Part shown: positions 3,146 through 61,000 of the stretch, piece after piece
Layout: every line of letters starts with the position of its first letter
Position numbering within the stretch: the stretch's first letter is position 1
Source: Octopus vulgaris
Lineage: Eukaryota
Assembly (NCBI GenBank): GCA_951406725.2
Contig: OX597824.1
Location: 61,504,001 to 61,568,000, forward strand
Length of the DNA: 64,000 bases
Reading direction: 5' to 3'
Translations under genes and position numbers: made by a program
The notes under the pieces: generated by a model
Databases searched by the model: none
What the model was told of the DNA's origin: nothing
What the model saw: the letters and a program-made list of their open reading frames with translations, nothing else

Positions 3146-3175
<30 letters not shown>

Positions 3176-3178
<3 letters not shown>

Positions 3179-3983
3179 AATTTAAAAATAAGGATAAAAT
3201 CTTTATAAGAAATTATCAGTAGTTAGCGTGAAAAACCTCGTAAGAGAAAAAATCTGTAAATTTTTCCACTTCGAAAATATTTATTTATATTATATAGAGG
3301 GTACTATTATTCATAGGTACCGCACGCTAGGAGGGAGTTTTGCAGTCAAAACTACTAAAATAAACAAATTGTACCGAATGCAAAACTTCAAATCAAGTCA
3401 TTTAAAAACAGAATTTAGTTACATATCACCTGTGATTTCGCAATCAATGCAGAATATACATTCTATGCTCTTCAGTGCAACGAACTCAAGACATATAAGA
3501 AAAAACACAACATTACATACCCGACAGCCAACCGTAGAATTCGCCACAGCATGTACGAATATTTACATATCTATGAAAATGGCGGGCTTATTCGCAATGC
3601 ATTTCGGTAACAACTTGCCTACTCGGAACAAAAATTCAGTATTGAACTATTCCGGTGAAAAATATAAATTTAAAAATAAGGATAAAATATTTATAAGAAA
3701 TTATCAGTAGTTAGCGTGAAAAACGTCGTAAGAGAAAAAATCTGTAAATTTTTCCACTTTGAAAATATTTATTTATATTATATAGAGGGTACTATTATTC
3801 ATAGGTACCGCACGCTAGGAGGTACTTTGCAGTCAAAACTACTAAAATAAACAAATTGTACCGAATGCAAAACTTCAAAGCAAAATGACTTGCTTTGAAG
3901 TCTTGCATTCGGTACAATTTGTTTATTTTAGTAGTTTTGACTGCAAAATCCCTCCTAGCGTGCGGTACCTATAAATAATAGTA

Positions 3984-3985
<2 letters not shown>
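3176..3985 (-). mobile_element. candidate non-LTR retrozyme: 488-bp tandem unit (about 1.45 copies) with inverted 5' arm
   Basis: 3178-3395 repeats at 3666-3883 (period 488); 3788-3883 is inverted at 3890-3985; contains an intact hammerhead; (TA)n on both sides; no credible ORF. Confidence 0.8.
3418..3481 (-). ncRNA. type-I hammerhead ribozyme, intact core
   Basis: GTTGCA-CTGAAGA-GCA(TAGAAT gtat ATTCTG cattgat)TGC-GAAA-TCAC ag GTGA-TA-TGTAAC; all core nucleotides present and stems I, II and III pair. Confidence 0.88.
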
Positions 3986-4030
<45 letters not shown>

Positions 4031-11162: not shown

Positions 11163-11580
11163 GGGCGGCGAGGTGGCAGAAACGTTAGCACGGCTGGCGA
11201 AATGTTTAGCCGTATTTCGTCTGCCGTTACGTTCTGAGTTCAAATTCCGCCGAGGTCGACGTTGCCTTTCATCCTTTCGGGGTCGATTAAATAAGTACCA
11301 GTTACGCACTGGGGTCGATATAATCGACTTAATCCGTGTGTCTGTCCTTGTTTGTCTTCTCTGTGTTTAGCCCACTGTGGGTAGTAAAGAAATAGGTATT
11401 TCGTCTGCCGCTACGTTCTGAGTTCAAATTCCCCCTAGGTCGACTTTGACTTTCATCCTTTCGGTGTCGATAAATTAAGTACCAGCTACTCACTGGGGTC
11501 GATATAATCGACTTAATCCGTGTGTCTGTCCTTGTTTGTCCCATCTGTGTTTAGACCCCTGTGGGCGATAAAGAAATATA
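11163..11580 (+). mobile_element. tRNA-derived SINE followed by a tandem 5'-truncated second copy
   Basis: A-box-like TGGCAGAAACG and B-box-like GAGTTCAAATTCC; 11213-11395 repeats at 11397-11578; same family at 39360, 52411 and 53596. Confidence 0.85.
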
Positions 11581-26585: not shown

Positions 26586-29500
26586 GAGAGAGAACATCGG
26601 GGACGTTTAACATGTGAGAGCGAAAAAACAGTGGCTCCGAAATATATCCACAAACATCAGAAACAAAAACATTGTATGGAGCTAAAATATAACTGACAAA
26701 GGATTGGACTATATCCGAGTAAGTAATACTCATTGAAATTTATTGCTATTTTCCAAACGAAATGATGTATTTTAACTCGATAGCACATGTAAACATGCTT
26801 GATACATTACGATCCATCATCACCAGATCATCTCCGGCCCCAAACACCATGTACAAAAAAACTACGAATAAATTAAAGAATACCGGTATTATTCAACCCA
26901 AGAATAACAACCGGGAAGTACGTACTTTGAACCTGTTACAAAAAAAGTACGAAAAACTACGCGTGTAAAACAATGTGACAACAGAAATGAACGGATCGGT
27001 ACCCTACGAAAATGACGACCGTCAAAATAATGGGCCGGACGTTATTCCTCATGTCCTGCAAATAAAACCAAAAAGGCATAAATGGACACGTGAGGAATAC
27101 ATTTCAATCCTACACGCTTACTTTACAGCAGTGTTCTACCCAAAGAGCGAAAACACAACGACATATACATATAAAATATGGAAGCAAAATAACATAAATA
27201 AAGACCTGGATATAGCAATGAACCCTAATAACCTAGCTAACGTGCGAAAATATATTCTCAACGCAAAGAAAATATCAGGAATAGAAATAGAACATTTAAA
27301 AGAAACAATACACCAGGAAAATATAGATAGAAGCCACACAACAATGACAAATACTATTAACACTGAAACAGTAAAACACGAAGACAAACGTAACACTTCC
27401 AACAAAAACGATGTAAACAAAAAACAACAAACCCAGACCGTAAGGATACATAATAATACACGACAAACAACAATCCAAAACACGACAAACAAACATACGA
27501 ATGAGAAAGAAAGCGACACAAATCTAAAGCCTGGAAACAACGAAGGGGAGCCTAATGATTATGATGTTATAAAAAGTAGAATAATCAAAGAACTGAAAAC
27601 CACAGAGCTCAAAATGGAACACCGACAATACATCCCAAAAATAAATATAGACAAAACAACAACATCAATTATAAACAGCATAAACCTAGCCGTCAAGGAA
27701 CTAATAGCCACTGAAACAAAAAGCGATATCACTGAGCTAAATAACTTAGTATACGCAGCAGCCACTGCAGCCACAGAAGAAGCTCGATACTCACTCAAAC
27801 CCATCCAAACAGGAGTACCACCACCCAAACAAACCCTGTGGATAAATAACATCCAAAACAAAATACAAAAAATGAGAAAAGATCTGTCGATTCTAAATGA
27901 AATCAGTAGACAATCAACGCTACTAAGCAACAAAAAGAAAACAAAAATACTCCGAAAATACAAGACAAAAAAGATTTACCTGAGATAAAAGAAAAGCTAA
28001 AGCAAGATATCCTTGCCAAAGCACAAAGGATCCGCCGGTACGAGAAACTCCAACGTTTCTTTGAACAAAACAAACAGTTCAACTCCAATCCCCAAAAGTC
28101 CTACCAAGAATTTGGCAAAAATAAAATAGAAATCACTGTAGCGCCAACGGTGGAAGAAGTGGAAGAATTCTGGAGAGAAATATGGTCGGCGAACGAACAA
28201 CCAAAAAAAAAAAAAAGGAGTATTAAAACAACAAACTCAGCATCTGAGGAACTTTGGACCCTCATAACAACTGAAGAGGTCATCCAGGGACTGCAAAAAC
28301 TAAGCAACTGGAAGGCACCTGGGCATGACAAGATCCCCAACTTCTGGTTGAAATATCTGACAGGAGTGCACAAAAAGCTGGCTGAAAAATTTAACAACAT
28401 ACTGGCAGAGCCAGAGACAATGCCTGGATGGCTCACGAAGGGGAAAACCATCTTAATTCCCAAATCAAATGAGACAGCAAAACCAGAAAACTACAGACCT
28501 ATATCCTGTCTCCCTACAATGTACAAAGCATTTACTGCAGTAATATCACAAAGATTGAACAAGCACCTGTACGAAAACAAACTGTTTCCAGAAGAGCAGA
28601 AAGGATGCCGCAAAGGCTCATATGGCTGTAAAGATCAACTAATGATCAATAAAGCCATAACTGAAGACAGCCACAGAAAGAAGAAAGGCCTCCGTATGGC
28701 CTGGATCGACTACCGAAAGGCGTTTGATAGCATCCCCCACACATGGATCCTCGAAACACTAGCCATTAACAAAGTTGCACCAACAATTATAAAATACATA
28801 GGACACTCTATGAATAAATGGCAGACAGTGCTACAGCTCCAAACATAAGAGGGACTTGTAAAAACCAAAGTCATCCCCATTAGAAGAGGAATATTCCAGG
28901 GAGACACGCTCTCTCCACTCCTTTTCTGCTTGGCACTGTCACCTCAATCGGATATGCTAAACAGAACTGAATGCAGATATAAATGTTACGGCAAAACGAT
29001 CAGCCACCTTTTATATATGGATGACCTAAAACTATACGCCACAAATGACAAACAGCTGGAAACACTACTAAAGACAGTTCATGGATTTACCAAAGAAATT
29101 GATATGAAATTTGGATTGGAGAAATGCGCCAAAGTAACCCTGAAAAGAGGAAAACAAGTTAAGAGTAGCAATAGCACACTAGATAAAACCAATGAAATAA
29201 AAGAATTAGACCAAAGCCACACTTACAAATACTTATGAATACATGAACTAGATAAGACACAACACACACAAGCGAAAGAGAAAATAAAAAAAGAATATTA
29301 CAGACGAGTTAGATCAATACTGAAAACAGAGCTCAATGCTAAAAACAAGATAATAGGTATGAACACTTTAGCCGCCTCTTCATGGCAAATACTGGACTAA
29401 ACTAAATGCAAAAGAAACAGACAAAGAAAAAGCCCAGCAATGGTTGAGAAGCTCAGGACTCAAAGCTGAGACAGAAGGATTTTTAATTGCAGCACAAGAT

Positions 29501-31446: not shown

Positions 31447-31877
31447 TCACGTATGTTATTTCATTTCAGAAATACAACATTCACTGGTGATCTCACATTG
31501 CTTAAGATATTCGCGCGTGAATTAAAATTTTAAAAACTAAAAGTGCAAACCACAGGAGCCAAATAGTAGAAATATTAAATATATTTTATAGACAATGCAA
31601 TTGTTGGTATGTTCGTTGGTTGATAACATCATTTTGAGAGAGCAGGAGAGAGATTAAAAGAGAGATACCACAGAGACTTAACAGAAAGGTTGATGGCACA
31701 AACTAGACTTGGTGACAGCTTTGAGCAAAGGAATGCTACATGCTTACACCGTGTGAGAAAATTGTTTTAGAGAACTTGAAGGAAATGGAGGAGGAAGAAC
31801 AGGTAGAAAAAGAAGAGGGGTAGTAAACGGAAGGGTAGATGGATGTAGATAGAACAGGCTCTGCAATAATTAATATA

Positions 31878-33135
31878 CGAGGAGTGTTCATTAAAGAATT
31901 TCTCTGACTCACTCACCAATTCTTGCAGGAAACGGAACTTGAATAGGTATTATCATACATATTCCTACATGACAAATTATAAATTGCCGCTTTCCTCTAG
32001 TATTAGTTTGTCTCTTACGGCTGCTAAAATGGACGAAGATGTTATAATGGAGGCAATTCAATGCAGATCAGTGATGATGTTCTTATACTTGAAAGGTCAT
32101 ACACAAAAAGAGACTTTCGATGAGATGAAAGATGTTTATGGTGACGATGCACCATCATACAACGTAGTTAAGCACTGGCACCGCCAGTTCAAATGTGGTC
32201 GGACATCAGTGGAAACTACTCCTATACCTGGACGACAACATACCGCCATTGATGACAACACTATAAAGTGGAAGCCACCATTTTGGTGGATCGTCGCGCA
32301 TAACTATTCAGTAACTAGCACAAGAGGTGAAGATAAGTTTATGGTCCGTGAAAAAAAGATATTCACAACCATTTGTACATACGGAAGTTGTCTGCACAAT
32401 CGATTTCCCGGATGCTCACACCGTTTCAGAAGTAGGAACGAGTCAATTACGCCCAGGTTCAATGCGCCAAAAACATGAGGAAGACCTTTTCGTCAGACTT
32501 ATAACACAGGATGAAACATGGGCCCATCACTATGATTCTGAGACTAAAGTCCAGTCGAAGCAAGGAAAGTATGATAACTCACCACCTCCAAAGAAGGCTC
32601 GTATTCTCAGCTGGCGAGGTGATACTCACAGTCTTTTGGGACCAAAGTGGAGTAGTGACGATGGATTTTCTGGCAAAGGGCACTTTAATTAACGGGGAAT
32701 ATCTTTTCTCTGCTGAAAAAATTGCGGGATGCATCTAAGCAGAGAGGTGAGGCGTGCTGATCAAAGGAGTCCGCCTCCTTCAAGACAACTCCCCAATTCA
32801 CAATGCGCATGTTGCCCAGATGAAAGCACACTCTTGCGGTTATAAAATTCTTCATTATCCCCCTTACTCTCCCGACCTCGCACCATCTGGCTTTCACCTC
32901 AAAAAACATGAAGTGTTTTTTGAAGGGGAAGCACTATTTGGATGTTGATCAACTTATTTCCGAGGTAAAGTCTTGGCTCCTGACGCAACCTATCGACTTC
33001 ACATCTGCATAAAGCGTTAGAAGTTTGACAGCATTGTTGGTGGCTATGTAGAGAAGGACTAATAATTATGCCAAGCTTCGTTTATCCCAGTTTTTGGGAA
33101 GTGGGTCAAGAAAAATCTTTAATGAACACCCCTCG
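31878..33135 (+). mobile_element. full-length decayed mariner (irritans-like), TA-flanked
   Basis: TIRs TA|CGAGGAGTGTTCATTAAAGA and TCTTTAATGAACACCCCTCG|TA; ITQDETWAHHYD, LLQDNSPIH, YPPYSPDLAPSGF; frameshifts. Confidence 0.95.
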
Positions 33136-54795: not shown

Positions 54796-55069
54796 GTGAC
54801 GTTATGTTTATATTGCATGGAGTTATCGTTGTATTTATTTTCAGGAGATTTCTAAATAAGGGGAGGTAGTGAGTGATTTCTTCCGGTGTAAGGGAGATAA
54901 TCGCTTAAAATTTTTTTTCCCTATATATATGTATATATATCTAGACACATATATGCATACATATATATGATATATAGATATATCTGTATACTGTATCTAT
55001 ATCTATATCTATATCTATCTATCTCTCCCCCTCTCTCTCTCTATATATATATATATACATATATATATA

Positions 55070-55712
55070 ATGTTCGTAATGGTGTCTACAAATGACTGCC
55101 AGGACTTTTTGATGTTTCTGATGTTAGTGGGTGTGTATGTGTGCGTGAAGGACCAATCGACTTGTGCAATGTCATTATTGATCGCTTCCCAGTATGCATT
55201 GTGGAAATCCATAGTGTCAAATGGATGAACAGGAGGGATGACATTTGTTTTGCATTTTGGCCGGTGAAATCTCAGATCACAGAGAACCATGTCATGATCA
55301 GAGAGTAGAGTTTTCTCCACTGCAACATTATGGATAGTATCAGTGTGATTGCTGAAAATTAAGTCTAAGACGTTTTTGTGACATCTCGTTGGTTCGAGCA
55401 CCAATTGGAACAGGAAGAAATCATCCATGAAGTCAAGAAGCGATTCCACTGCCTCCCTTGCAGGGGTTGAGAGAGAAGAACCTGGCAGCAGACTGTTTGT
55501 AGACCAGTCAACCCCGGGAAGGTTGAAGTCTCCCATCATTAAAATGTTGTCAGGTTGACACTGCTGATTGAAACACTTTATGTTGTTGAGGCATTCCTTG
55601 AAGCATGGTAGGGGCGTTTGGGGTGGTCTGTAGAGCCCAACTACTGTTACGTTGTTGGTTTGACTGAATACAGCGACTGCTTTGCAAACACACCCCATTA
55701 AGATCTGCAAAT
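55070..55712 (-). pseudogene. APE endonuclease segment of a CR1/L2-group LINE (inverted 5' part)
   Basis: VVGLYRPP, MMGDFNLPGVDW, PTR..NVLDLIFSN, LSDHDMV. Confidence 0.92.
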
Positions 55713-57312
55713 AAATCTAAGTGTCGAATCCCTAGAAATAGAAAATCTCTCATCAGGAAAATTAAAAGAATTAACAAAAAAATCAACAAGCTGAAATACT
55801 GTCAACAGCAACACACCAACCTGACTGTCATCTCGTCGCTAGAGATTAAAAAACAAACTCCAAAACAACATGATGTCTATCATCAATAGTCAGAGAAGAG
55901 CTGAAGAGGCCTGGGCCATTGAGAAGATCAAACTCAATCCCAAAGTGTTCATTTCATTTGCAAAAAGACACAGAGTCACTGGTTCTACTGTTGGCCCTCT
56001 GATTGAAGAAAATGGTACTCTTCAAGACAATGCCAAAACCATGGGAGAGATATTGCAGAAACAATATTGCTCTGTTTTCTGCAATCCTGATATGACTGAT
56101 CTGGGCTGTATCAGTGATGTTACTCCCCAATACACTTTATCAGACATAACCTTTGGCGCTCCTGATGTGTTAGCAGCAATAAAGGAAATGAAGCATAATT
56201 CAGCAGTAGGTCCCGATAGTTTCCCTGCTTGTGTCTTGAAGATGTATCAACACCAAATTGCACCCCCTCTAGCCAATCTGTGGCGGAAGTCACTGGATGC
56301 TGGATATATCGCAGAAGACCTTCTATCCCAGTCTGTTGTCCCAGTTTTCAAGAAAAGAAACAAATCGCTTGCCGTGAATTACCGTCCAATCTCACTCACC
56401 TCTCATATCATTAAGGTATTTGAGAGAGTGCTGAGATCGCGTATGACTCACTTCCTTGAGAGTCATAATATGCTGAACTCCAACCAGCATGAATATATGA
56501 ATATATATATATGGATTCCATTTTGATGACATTTTGAGAGCCTTGGGAGAGGGTTCCAACACTGATGTCATCTACCTTGATTTCAGCAAGGCCTTTGACA
56601 AGGTTGATCATAAGATCCTTTTGAGAAAGCTGTCCAATATTGGTGTCACTGGAAAGCTACTGCAGTGGATCAAGTGCTTCCTGTCTAACAGAACCCAACA
56701 TGTTGTAGTCGAAGGAGTCAAATCCAGCCCAGCCAAAGTCAGCAGTGGTGTCCCACAAGGCATTGTGTTGGGCCCACTTCTCTTCATCATCTACATTAAT
56801 GATATTACTGACACCATCAAACACAGTAACATCATAACCTTCGCTGATGATTCCAAGCTCCAGAAGGTCATCAATGGCGTGGATGTATTCACTCCAACGA
56901 CGCCGTGAACGCTACATTATATGTATGATGTGGAAAATATTCCATCAGCACTGACCGAATGATGTTGGCATCACCTTCAAAATACATCCAAGGCTTGGAC
57001 CACGTGCCATCCGTCCACAACAAAAATCTAAAGCGCATCACATAACGACAATACGGCACAATTATTTCACCTCAATTGGACCCGCTCTCTTCAACATTAG
57101 ACCAGGACACGTCAAAACAGAAACTGACCACACAAAATTCAAGAAGTCTTTGGACAAATTCCTTCAAACAGACCCGGACAAACCACCCACACCCGGATAT
57201 GTCTCCGCAAACAATAACTCTCTGCTCGAATGGGCCTCGGTGCTCAAATCCTGAATTGAAAGATTTCGCCAGGGCAAATACTGGCCAAAACCTTTCTAAG
57301 TTATTCTAAGTT
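55713..57312 (+). mobile_element. CR1/L2-group LINE RT and 3' end with internal deletions
   Basis: SAVGPDS, NYRPISLTS, VIYLDFSKAFDKVDH, SGVPQGIVLGPLLF, FADDSKL; tail TTCTAAGTTA twice, then (TA)n. Confidence 0.93.
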
Positions 57313-58035: not shown

Positions 58036-61000
58036 TAGTTGAAATTTACCAAAAAACAAAAGACGAAGCAAGGTGTGTGTACAACAAGCAGGTGTCTTAG
58101 TTTGACGCTCGGGAAAGTGAGAAATTCTTTTACATTTCGAGCCTACGCTCTTCAACTGAAAGGAATAAGAGAAAATAACCAGAGAGACAAGAAAAAACTT
58201 GTGAATTTATCTATAAAGCATGGCCGCTGTTTGGGAGAAAAAGTTTGACAGGAGAGTTAGAACGAAAGGGGATATACTAAAGTACTAGTGATCCAAAAAT
58301 AAAGGTGCGCTTACGTGCATGTGTATGTAACAATATTTATGCGTCTGTGTGTGGATAAGGGCTGGTGACCTTTCCGTGTGGATGTGTGAGTGTGCGTCTG
58401 TAATATATGGGTATGCAGAAGATGGTGTTTGGTGTGTGTGCTGGGAAGTGGTCAGTGCTAGTGTGTGTGGAGTGATGTGGTGTGGTCGTGTGTAGTGTTG
58501 GTGTGGTGGTAGTATGGTGTGGCGGTGTGGGGTTGTGGGTGCGTGTGGTGGGTATGTGGGAGTGGGGTGTGAGGGGATTGTGGTTGGCGGGGTATCAATG
58601 AAGAGAGAAGGTGGATAGGAGTGAAGAGAGGGAGTAGGTGGCAGAGCAGGAGAGTAGAGGTGGGTAGGAGGGAAGAGAGGAAGTGGGTATCAGATAAAGA
58701 GAGAAGTGGAGGGGCAATGAAGGGGCAGGTGCGGGGAGAGAGAGCAAAGGCATGGTCCACAGAACGCGCTCTGGCAAGGGCTGTGTGGATATTGGTGAGG
58801 GGAAATCCACAAAAGATGAAGTGGCGAGCCATAAGTTGAGTCTGAGTTTAACATGATGGTTGTCACCGCAGAAGGTGAAATTGGGAGTAGGGGGTGGAAA
58901 GCTTGGTGTAGGTAGGGTACGAGGAGGAGACGTTAAAGTAGGAGTGTGAGTAGATGTGTTTGTAGTGGATGGAGTTAGTGAGAGCGGAGTGGTGTATGCT
59001 GACCGAAATGTCGAGAAAGGCGACGGAAGTATTGGAAATAGTGCAGGAGAATGCGAGGGCAGGATGGAAGGATTGGACAAAAGAGAGGAAGGAGTCTAGT
59101 TGTTCCCGGGATAGTGAGGTCGCTCCGATACAATCATCAATATAACGACCGTATACTTCGGGAGTGAGACCAGTGAATCGTGAGAATATTTGGGCTTCAA
59201 CATAGTCAACAAATAGGCTCCCATAGTTGGGGCCCATTCTCGTTTCCATGCCCACTCCCGATACCTGTTGGGTAAAATACCCCGTGAACGAGAAGCAGTT
59301 GAGGGTGTGAACAAGTTCGACACATGAAGTGTGGAGGTGTCAGTTTGGGTGTTGGGTCGAAGATCTAAGAAGTGTTAGAGTTCAAGAAGTTTTGTAGGAT
59401 CACCGTATATAGACTTATGATATCAAGAGGGGAGAGACGTTTAGAGGGGTCAGGAGGGAAGGAGAAAGTGTTGAAGAGACGGAGAGCTTGGTTTGTGACG
59501 TGGATGTGGCAGGGGAGGGAAGCCACTAGGCGGGGCAAGGATACTGTCGAGGTATTTTGAGATCAATTCCGCGGGGCAGTTACAGGCAGAGACAATGGGG
59601 CAGCCAGGTTAGTTGGGGTTGTAGATTTTGGGGAAGAAGTAAATGGTAGGGTGTATGAAGTGTGGATAATGAGGTTGCAGGCGGTAGGAGGAAGACGGGA
59701 GGAGGTGATGACGTCATGGATAGAGGAGGACACAGTCTGTTGATAGTCAGGCCTAGGGCTTAAAGGCAGAAGGCAATAGAATTAGGTGTCTTGAAGTTGG
59801 CGGAGAACTTCAGCTTTGTGTCTGCGTGTCACACCACCACAGTTATACCCAGCCGGTTTTATGATGATGTCGTTGCGGCGTCGGAGACATCGAAGGGCCG
59901 AGAGGTCGGCCGGGGTTATGTTAAAATATTGGGGACGCCTGCGGAAGTTAAACCGGTCCTAACACGTTGGCAGATGCTAGCAAAATGATCGAGTGCCTGG
60001 AAGTGGCCAGGAGCTAGCATCCAGTGCGATGGTCGGCGGCCAACCTAGGTGAAACAGTCCTCTTAATTAGATGCAGTTGGAGTTTTGTGGAATAGTGCAT
60101 ATAGCCTGATGCGGCGCAGAAAGCTATGAATACGGGCCTGAAATTCGTTACTGGATGAAGTGAGGGGGATGAAGTGTAGACCCTTACTGAGAAGAGAGCG
60201 CTCCGGCCCAGAGAGGGGAAGATCAGGAGGAATGGTAACAACAGACTAAAGCGGGGAAGGGGTGGATGAGTTAGATGTGGGGGTGAGGGGGTAGTAAAAA
60301 GCTGGAAGGAGGGAGAGGAGGAGTGAGTGGAGAGTAACAGAAGGGTTGCGGTGGAGTGTATCGGGGATTGATCGTGGTGGAAGTTGTAGTGGCATCGGGT
60401 GTGACAGAATGAAGGAGTGAGTGGAGTTTATGCTGTTTAGTGCGAGCGAGGGACTCGTGAAAAACATGATTTAAATAGATTATGAAGCGTAGAGTGGAAT
60501 ATGCAAAGGAAGGTGAAAGAGAGGAGAAAAAATGGAATAAGTGAGAGGGAGAAGGCGTTCGAGGTTTTGTATCTTGGAGAGATTAGAAAGTATGGTGCAT
60601 GCATAAGGTGGTAAGAAGTAGTACGGAGTATAGGTAAGATGGCAGAAGTAGAGTTGAAAGTGGAGTGGAAATGGAGGCTGAAAAATTTGGGATGAGGTAG
60701 CAGTGAAGGCAGCGACTGAGAGAGGAAACGTGGCTAGAGAAGTGGGTTTTTCTAAAAATCAGTAGAGAAATCTTAAAAGAAGTTTGAAAGTAGCGCAAAG
60801 GATTCGTGGAACGGTGCTTCTTTAGGCGGTGCTGAAGGTGAAGGAGGAAAGATTTATAATCGGGCATTCTGGAAAAAGGAGCAAAAGGAAAAGTCGTGAA
60901 GAAAAGAAAAAAAGGTGAAAGTGAGAGAAAAGGAGAGAGAGATGCAAAGGAACAACGTACGGAGTAAGAAAAAACAAAGTTCAAAAAGGTTCAAAGAATT

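Follow-up and report, generated by a model that had tools for sequence, protein, structure and literature searches.

A 488-nt non-coding repeat with a hammerhead motif on its minus strand lies in the 64-kb stretch of Octopus vulgaris DNA analysed here (the window). The locus raises the question of what kind of element this repeat is, how it was inserted and from which RNA it was copied. An earlier note, made from the window sequence, had read it as a non-LTR retrozyme. In this study, we examined the locus itself and its relatives in the genome (2.8 Gb, 227 contigs).

The window locus

On the minus strand, positions 3176-3883 formed a 708-nt direct repeat, that is, the roughly 1.45 units of 488 nt that the note had described (Table 1). 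Segments 3174-3340 and 3662-3828, and likewise 3339-3396 and 3826-3883, were 97-98% identical at a spacing of 488 and 487 nt. The description of the locus was right in the direct repeat and the hammerhead and missed an inverted arm within its own range, at 3884-3985. This arm of 105 nt was 94% complementary to 3779-3883, and the direct and inverted arms met as a near-perfect hairpin at 3883/3884, with (TA)n adjoining both ends of the insertion. The unit lacked 6 nt (near 3561) present in most sister copies, whose matches spanned ~482-496 nt. A 170-aa open frame over the unit had no Pfam match, and an ORF encoding reverse transcriptase (RT) and GIY-YIG between pseudo-LTRs (pLTRs) was absent from every insertion examined. 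The locus held a single hammerhead, since neither the partial unit nor the inverted arm extends as far as the ribozyme, and not the two or more consecutive hammerhead units that Li et al. (2026, bioRxiv 10.64898/2026.07.22.740005) call active. These results indicate that the locus is a dispersed insertion, 5'-truncated and 5'-inverted, with one hammerhead, and not itself a circle-producing array.

Table 1. Features of the insertion, in window positions; E1 and E2 are the two fixed 3' ends of the family
Feature	Position	Strand	Remarks
(TA)n target microsatellite	3157-3178		At the 3' end of the direct arm; read from the sequence
Full non-coding unit	3176-3663	-	488 nt, 32% GC; distal fixed end E1 (unit ~484) at its 3' terminus, near 3180
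Tail between fixed 3' ends E2 and E1	3180-3290	-	E2 at unit ~365-387, window ~3277-3299
CACGCTA, 3' strand of conserved helix enclosing E2	3224-3230	-	Consensus fold of 10 subfamily units
TAGCGTG, 5' side of that helix (partner CACGCTA)	3323-3329	-	Consensus fold of 10 subfamily units
Type I hammerhead	3418-3481	-	Predicted cut between 3424 and 3423
Hammerhead stem I, GTTGCA/TGTAAC	3481-3476 with 3423-3418	-	
Hammerhead core CTGAAGA	3475-3469	-	Followed by two-part stem II
Hammerhead GAAA	3439-3436	-	Followed by near-palindromic stem III, ATCAC-AG-GTGAT
CGCCATTTT motif	3576-3584	-	Kept across subfamilies (subfamily alignment)
5' strand of long helix around the hammerhead domain	3598-3623	-	Predicted folds; partner at window ~3360-3384
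Upstream partial unit, 5'-truncated, without hammerhead	3664-3883	-	Unit 268-488
Inverted arm	3884-3985	+	Unit ~261-365; outer end at E2
(AT)n target microsatellite	3986-4026		At the outer end of the inverted arm

The predicted circle of the unit had a GC content of 0.31-0.33 and was 63-66% paired (z -3.5 to -4.6 against 30 shuffles). The pairs of the modelled helix that encloses E2 were mostly invariant and lend it weak support. TAGCGTG was followed by the hairpin GGTAC/GTACC, which read GGCAT/ATGCC in other subfamilies (two pairs changed on both sides, in one event). The CGCCATTTT motif resembles a YY1 site; it is possibly a promoter element, or merely a paired strand.

Other mobile-element fragments lay at 26969-28848, 55015-55716, 31870-32478 and 58887-59300 of the window, with matches to a LINE-type RT, an APE endonuclease and a mariner HTH and a weak match to a PLE-like RT. 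A 184-nt SINE-like repeat was present in two tandem copies at 11212-11578.

The hammerhead and its family

From 3481 to 3418 the minus strand read GTTGCA CTGAAGA GCATAGAATGTATATTCTGCATTGATTGC GAAA TCAC AG GTGA TA/TGTAAC, the slash marking the predicted cut. All parts of the type I hammerhead claimed for this site were present (a CUGANGA / GAAA / NUH core and three helices, open at stem I), and the sequence predicts the cut where the note had placed it. In the 64-kb window, the bare core pattern had 9 matches against 5.2 expected, which is chance level, and a three-stem scan returned this site only. The note had proposed a check with Infernal and the Rfam hammerhead models, and this check was negative: they gave no hammerhead match in the window, in 9 other loci or in subfamily C, only low-complexity miRNA matches. 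When RF00163 was run over the genome and 73 of 263,217 candidates were scored, 6 sites matched, all unrelated to the unit. The minimum-energy fold of the isolated ribozyme fragment was not the hammerhead, and single-sequence folding gave no signal. With a core pattern at chance level, Rfam blind to the motif and another fold at minimum energy, the window sequence alone is only suggestive.

We then compared 17 diverged copies. The results showed that 92.7% of the stem cells were paired and that 13 of the 21 pairs had changed on both sides (6 of 6 in stem I, 7 of 10 in stem II), a level reached by 0 of 500 shuffles and by no slid control; 15 of these copies were picked by the core pattern, so that core and stem III are fixed by construction in them. 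Among 55 loci chosen on an unrelated tail motif (two of them duplicated), the exact core was kept in 26 of 30 ribozyme-spanning arms, or 24 of 28 without the two duplicate loci. The note had named a core not conserved in the family as grounds for giving up its reading, and the opposite was found. Subfamily B, found by BLAST alone, carried stem I as GACTTG/CAAGTC and stem II as ATAC/GTAT around the same core. Low variability of the ribozyme within subfamily A was not used as evidence, since the 30 loci concerned were selected on that region. These findings indicate, at the level of sequence, that the ribozyme is under structural constraint across the family.

Stem III occurred as ATCAC-AG-GTGAT, as ATCAC-G/T/A-GTGAT and as ATCATATGAT, all self-complementary to the centre, including pairs that are impossible in a hairpin. 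The predicted energies were -9.6 to -11.9 kcal/mol for isolated duplexes and 0 for isolated hairpins. A double-hammerhead mode of cleavage has been described for tandem animal hammerheads (PMC4209133). Because stem III is palindromic to its centre and the duplex more stable, our models favour this mode, despite a cheap monomer fold that lay +0.4 to +5.3 kcal/mol above the predicted minimum in the predicted circle.

To describe the family, we searched the genome with the unit and with exact patterns. The unit gave 2,611 first-look candidates, and the 40 that were scored were 91-97% identical over the full length. Matches numbered 318 for an exact subfamily-A 22-mer (reversed control 0), 760 for the exact core with the window-type stem III (control 0), 555 for the one-base-loop variant of stem III (control 4), a pattern that also catches an unrelated family, and 2,145 for the exact tail motif (control 0). 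Diverged subfamilies, with units of ~460-495 nt, aligned along the whole unit at roughly 60-90%. The genome-wide BLAST and covariation check that the note had called for thus yielded a dispersed family with covarying stems I and II, and the sequences point to more than 1,000 scattered copies of a ~490-base non-coding repeat with a conserved hammerhead fold.

The units ran in tandem for 2.7 copies in subfamily A and up to 31 in subfamily C, and two tandem hammerheads were present in 5 of 77 subfamily-A loci and in many subfamily-C loci. The 31-unit array (15 kb, G000:C1:64,639,650-64,655,240; L343, L344) consisted of tandem ribozyme units more than 99% identical to one another plus an inverted arm, had ends E2 and E1 and lay in (TA)n. 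Its recurring variant blocks suggest that part of it is probably a later expansion or an assembly effect; from its sequence, the array is a candidate source locus for circles. The reading as a non-LTR retrozyme family therefore held for the family, through such arrays in a sister subfamily, and did not hold for the window locus as an array. At the family level we found tandem non-coding units, each a few hundred nt long and bearing one hammerhead, with low GC and a self-paired predicted circle. By these sequence features the unit is a non-LTR retrozyme, though one with neither an Rfam match nor a 30-40-nt tail.

Insertion anatomy and the putative helper

Insertion ends were read in an even sample, the first 100 of the 318 subfamily-A matches, which comprised 77 loci with 129 arms. 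The results showed that 120 of the 129 arms ended at a fixed 3' end, either E2 (unit ~365-387; 65 arms) or E1 (~484; 55 arms), and TA-rich DNA adjoined 94 of these 120 ends. The 5' ends were scattered over the unit, as expected of variable 5' truncation; 58 of the 120 arms passed the cleavage site and 23 crossed the unit boundary. Any target-site duplications of more than 4 bp would be masked by the (TA)n flanks. No pile-up of 5' ends occurred at the cleavage site (truncation of 0.15, 0.12 and 0.07 per 30 nt before, across and after it), indicating that the genome carries no footprint of cleavage. In the first 30 loci, 5' ends seemed over-represented around unit position 1; we attribute this to selection by the full-length query and did not count it as evidence.

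An inverted arm was present in 45 of the 77 loci, of which 39 combined E1 with E2, 2 were same-ended and 4 had an unclassified end. One arm of each kind was thus the rule in 39 of 41 classifiable loci (p = 8e-10), and in 35 of 37 after loci with shared breakpoints were merged (six of the 41, in two groups). The same rule held in 19 of 20 cases in subfamily B, and the subfamily-C loci that were read agreed. The arms met within 25 nt of the same unit position in 16 of the 45 inverted loci, and did so in the window locus too. The loci with shared breakpoints (L224, L236, L237 and L238; L242 and L244) lay at different places on contig C1 and were probably duplicated with their flanks.

These ends bear on whether RNA was involved at all. 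A satellite or a DNA-level mobile element (rolling-circle or fold-back) that spread without RNA and bears a hammerhead by chance would fit the inverted arms, which resemble those of fold-back elements, and the signs of local expansion in one long array. However, fixed 3' ends with variable 5' truncation have the polarity of reverse transcription, the two alternative ends match the tail of Penelope-like elements (PLEs), and the RNA-structure covariation is strand-specific. We consider spread at the DNA level very unlikely.

EN+ PLEs are marked by partial tandems, an inverted 5' arm, a tail at one end and microsatellite targets (PMC8557442). [quoted passage not shown] The octopus insertions showed the partial tandems, the inverted 5' arm and the one-end tail, but the tail measured ~105-115 nt in subfamilies A, B and C, three times the usual 30-40 nt. 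Following the interpretation in PMC11167929, we infer that this tail marks two reverse-transcription start sites.

Many intact PLE ORFs were present in the genome. In a GIY-YIG search with 150 of 6,136 candidates scored, we found a 781-aa PLE family with RT, CxxC linker and GIY-YIG in many intact copies, which appears Neptune-like by its linker motif. This family had identical pLTRs, (TA)n flanks, inversions and two 3' ends 30-40 nt apart. Together with three more, four coding Neptune families were sampled, and tails of 30-40 nt were found in the three whose ends were read. Comparison of the unit with the four families (52 GIY-YIG and 44 second-group loci) by BLAST and profile revealed no homology, only separately inserted copies, and a pattern scan found no canonical hammerhead in the repeats of the sampled families. 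Hammerheads near coding PLEs, where read, belonged to separate non-coding insertions. As no similarity to the unit could be detected in the coding families sampled, the helper can be assigned by class only; it is probably a PLE RT-endonuclease of the Neptune type.

Two young Neptune-like PLE families (L121-L129 and L399-L412) had many intact ORFs, apparently without canonical hammerheads; one encodes 781 aa with an upstream open frame of at most 479 codons, and the other has an open frame of ~1,000-1,200 codons.

The note had also listed, among the grounds against its reading, that the unit might prove to be no more than a coding PLE's pLTR; the copies would then be truncated ones. The insertion marks shared with coding PLEs and the PLE ORF fragments near some copies would suit this explanation, as would the report that 24 of 57 Xenopus retrozyme families match known TEs, nearly all of them PLE ends (bioRxiv 10.64898/2026.07.22.740005), and the scoring of only 150 of the 6,136 GIY-YIG candidates leaves it some room. 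However, all 23 boundary-crossing arms ran on into another unit and never into an ORF, and arrays consisted of 3-31 pure units. In addition, the ORF-adjacent copies L142, L193, L204, L219 and L334, the five read in sequence (L307, L324 and L338 were left out), were distinct insertions, set apart from the ORF by a microsatellite, an inversion or unrelated DNA. With the lack of homology to the four Neptune families, these results make the explanation highly improbable; it is largely refuted for present-day copies, which may still descend from an extinct or unsampled coding pLTR.

The template RNA

Taken together, the window insertion is, as we judge with some confidence, a dispersed non-coding hammerhead retrozyme copy that was likely mobilised in trans by a PLE (probably Neptune) RT-endonuclease, likely from monomeric circular RNA. 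Loci with two or more tandem hammerheads would be transcribed. The hammerheads would cut, probably best as double hammerheads through the palindromic stem III, to release monomers that a host ligase closes into circles. A PLE protein dimer would then nick both (TA)n strands and start reverse transcription from E1 and E2 of one RNA, one per target strand. Each cDNA would then grow to a length that differs between insertions, past the uncut cleavage site and on around the unit. The cDNAs would finally be joined head to head, giving an inverted insertion as in the window, or one would be resolved alone, giving a simple 5'-truncated or tandem insertion. Independent priming of two RNAs would make half of the inversions same-ended; 2 of 41 were observed, which supports priming on one RNA.

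Units of one insertion were also alike. In subfamily C, they differed by 0.27% (direct) and 0.21% (inverted) within loci and by 1.63% between 17 loci; in subfamily B, the values were 0.88% and 0.91% within and 3.58% between 28 loci. Within insertions of these young subfamilies, units, inverted arm included, were therefore 4-7 times more alike than between loci. The values in subfamily A were 3.6% and 3.3% within and 5.5% between loci, and rare variants were shared 11-16 times more often within than between loci. Subfamily-C loci had private variant sets common to all units of one locus, inverted arm included. Clonal units are also compatible with read-through transcripts of homogeneous arrays, which counts against monomeric circles as the template. 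The small share of subfamily-A loci with two tandem hammerheads (5 of 77) likewise weighs against the proposed cycle.

A non-autonomous PLE-type element copied from uncut linear multimers would be compatible with all DNA-level observations. The hammerhead would then be real with another role, such as freeing the RNA from host read-through transcripts, stability or translation-independent processing, and circles, if made, would be a by-product. Cut sites without a pile-up of truncations agree with such copying, as does the behaviour of a purified Anolis PLE, for which mutation of the ribozyme leaves insertion normal and most templates are uncut RNA (PMC11167929). In line with it, in vitro cleavage failed for 8 of 9 retrozyme dimers from Xenopus (bioRxiv 10.64898/2026.07.22.740005), and the octopus genome holds a ribozyme-free 490-nt unit of tandem and inverted architecture (L218). 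On the other hand, L345, L350 and L353, with many private variants in every unit of both arms, would each need a homogeneous multi-unit source; few subfamily-A loci were arrays (5 of 77 with two ribozymes), although the unit boundary was crossed by 23 of 120 arms; and stem III stays palindromic, which suits the release of monomers from tandems. We regard copying from uncut multimers as unlikely, though to be taken seriously.

For copying from circles, tandem transcripts of coral, mussel and axolotl retrozymes are cut to monomers and circularised (PMC7229834). The unit was covered by assembled contigs of 4 presumed-RNA runs, which show no strand, ends or circles, and 14 of the 20 sequencing runs containing the unit were presumed RNA, although none is recorded as RNA. 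More tentatively, and with somewhat less than even confidence, we propose that the footprint is that of one PLE dimer that primes both (TA)n strands from two fixed positions of one small RNA circle, which it then copies all the way round. The units would then be free-living circRNA parasites of several independent lineages, unrelated in sequence to their ribozyme-less Neptune hosts.

Comparison with known systems and other hammerhead units

The octopus family shares with metazoan non-LTR retrozymes (PMC7229834; bioRxiv 10.64898/2026.07.22.740005) the low-GC non-coding tandem unit with one type I hammerhead, genomic monomers, dimers and multimers, co-existing PLEs and a self-paired predicted circle. 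Its unit exceeds the 150-450 bp of Cervera and de la Pena 2020 (PMC7229834) and is covered by the size range of 51-972 bp that Li et al. 2026 give. Unlike the metazoan retrozymes described in these sources, it has a longer stem III (4-5 bp, against 1-2 bp) and, in many subfamilies, a stem II in two parts, an architecture missed by Rfam; it also has mostly dispersed truncated copies and, in contrast to Xenopus retrozymes, no homologous coding pLTR that we could find. The 5' inversions, the two fixed ends and (TA)n targeting are not described for retrozymes in the portions of these two papers available to us.

With EN+ Neptune PLEs (PMC8557442; PMC11167929), the family has in common partial tandems, an inverted 5'-truncated arm, an optional one-end tail, microsatellite targets and a hammerhead in the repeat; it differs in its lack of an ORF and its longer tail, and from the coding Neptune families sampled in the octopus genome in its canonical hammerhead. 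Non-autonomous Chlamys elements such as MRC1 (PMC8557442) are likewise non-coding PLE parasites with pLTR-like and head-to-tail insertions, but, by that account, have 3' sequence in common with autonomous families, and hammerheads are mostly absent from their clade. Amphibian satellite 2 and axolotl retrozymes (PMC7229834) resemble the family in their tandem hammerhead repeats, palindromic loop 3 and dimer-assisted cleavage, which is a prediction for octopus, whereas in octopus stem III has the length that a monomer fold needs and arrays are a minority.

The retrozyme class and the hypothesis of its mobilisation by PLEs are already published. The giant squid paper counts 235 Rfam Hammerhead_1 matches and, in its accessible text, says nothing more on them (PMC6962438). 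No cephalopod retrozyme was found in the literature searched, nor were PLE-type insertion marks on retrozymes, and supplements, Repbase or Dfam may list the octopus repeat; this is apparently the first retrozyme family described from cephalopods. The return of animal retrozymes to the genome, by rolling-circle copying by a PLE, has so far been proposed from co-occurrence and pLTR similarity, and how PLEs produce tandem and inverted insertions is a second question that the octopus copies address. One genome combines a minimal non-coding substrate of 480-490 nt, young near-identical copies, intact Neptune ORFs and a sharp insertion rule (each start site supplies one arm, and the two arms share a haplotype), which makes both questions directly testable in vitro. 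A further gain is a hammerhead architecture that escapes Rfam and shows rich natural covariation.

Several other units were observed in the same genome. At L218:644-3615 (G000:C2, ~45,042,100-45,045,100), a different non-coding unit of ~490 nt was repeated 4.5 times in tandem (99%); like the hammerhead units it had an inverted 5' arm and was flanked by (TA)n, but it lacked the CUGAnGA core; this unit is ribozyme-free, or has another ribozyme, and has the insertion architecture of the hammerhead family. A distant relative at L203 (G000:C1:159,161,045; spacing ~420 nt) kept the ribozyme and stem III and little other unit sequence. Unrelated hammerhead families with a palindromic stem III were found at L099:208 and 455 with L410:8014; L094/L136:3534; L098:45 with L409:1641; L102/L122; L218:5368; L410:7150; and L363-L368. 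The L099 and L136 sequences, which were read, were non-coding (TA)n insertions, L099 being an inverted pair. Judged by sequence, many retrozyme lineages of independent origin appear to coexist in this genome.
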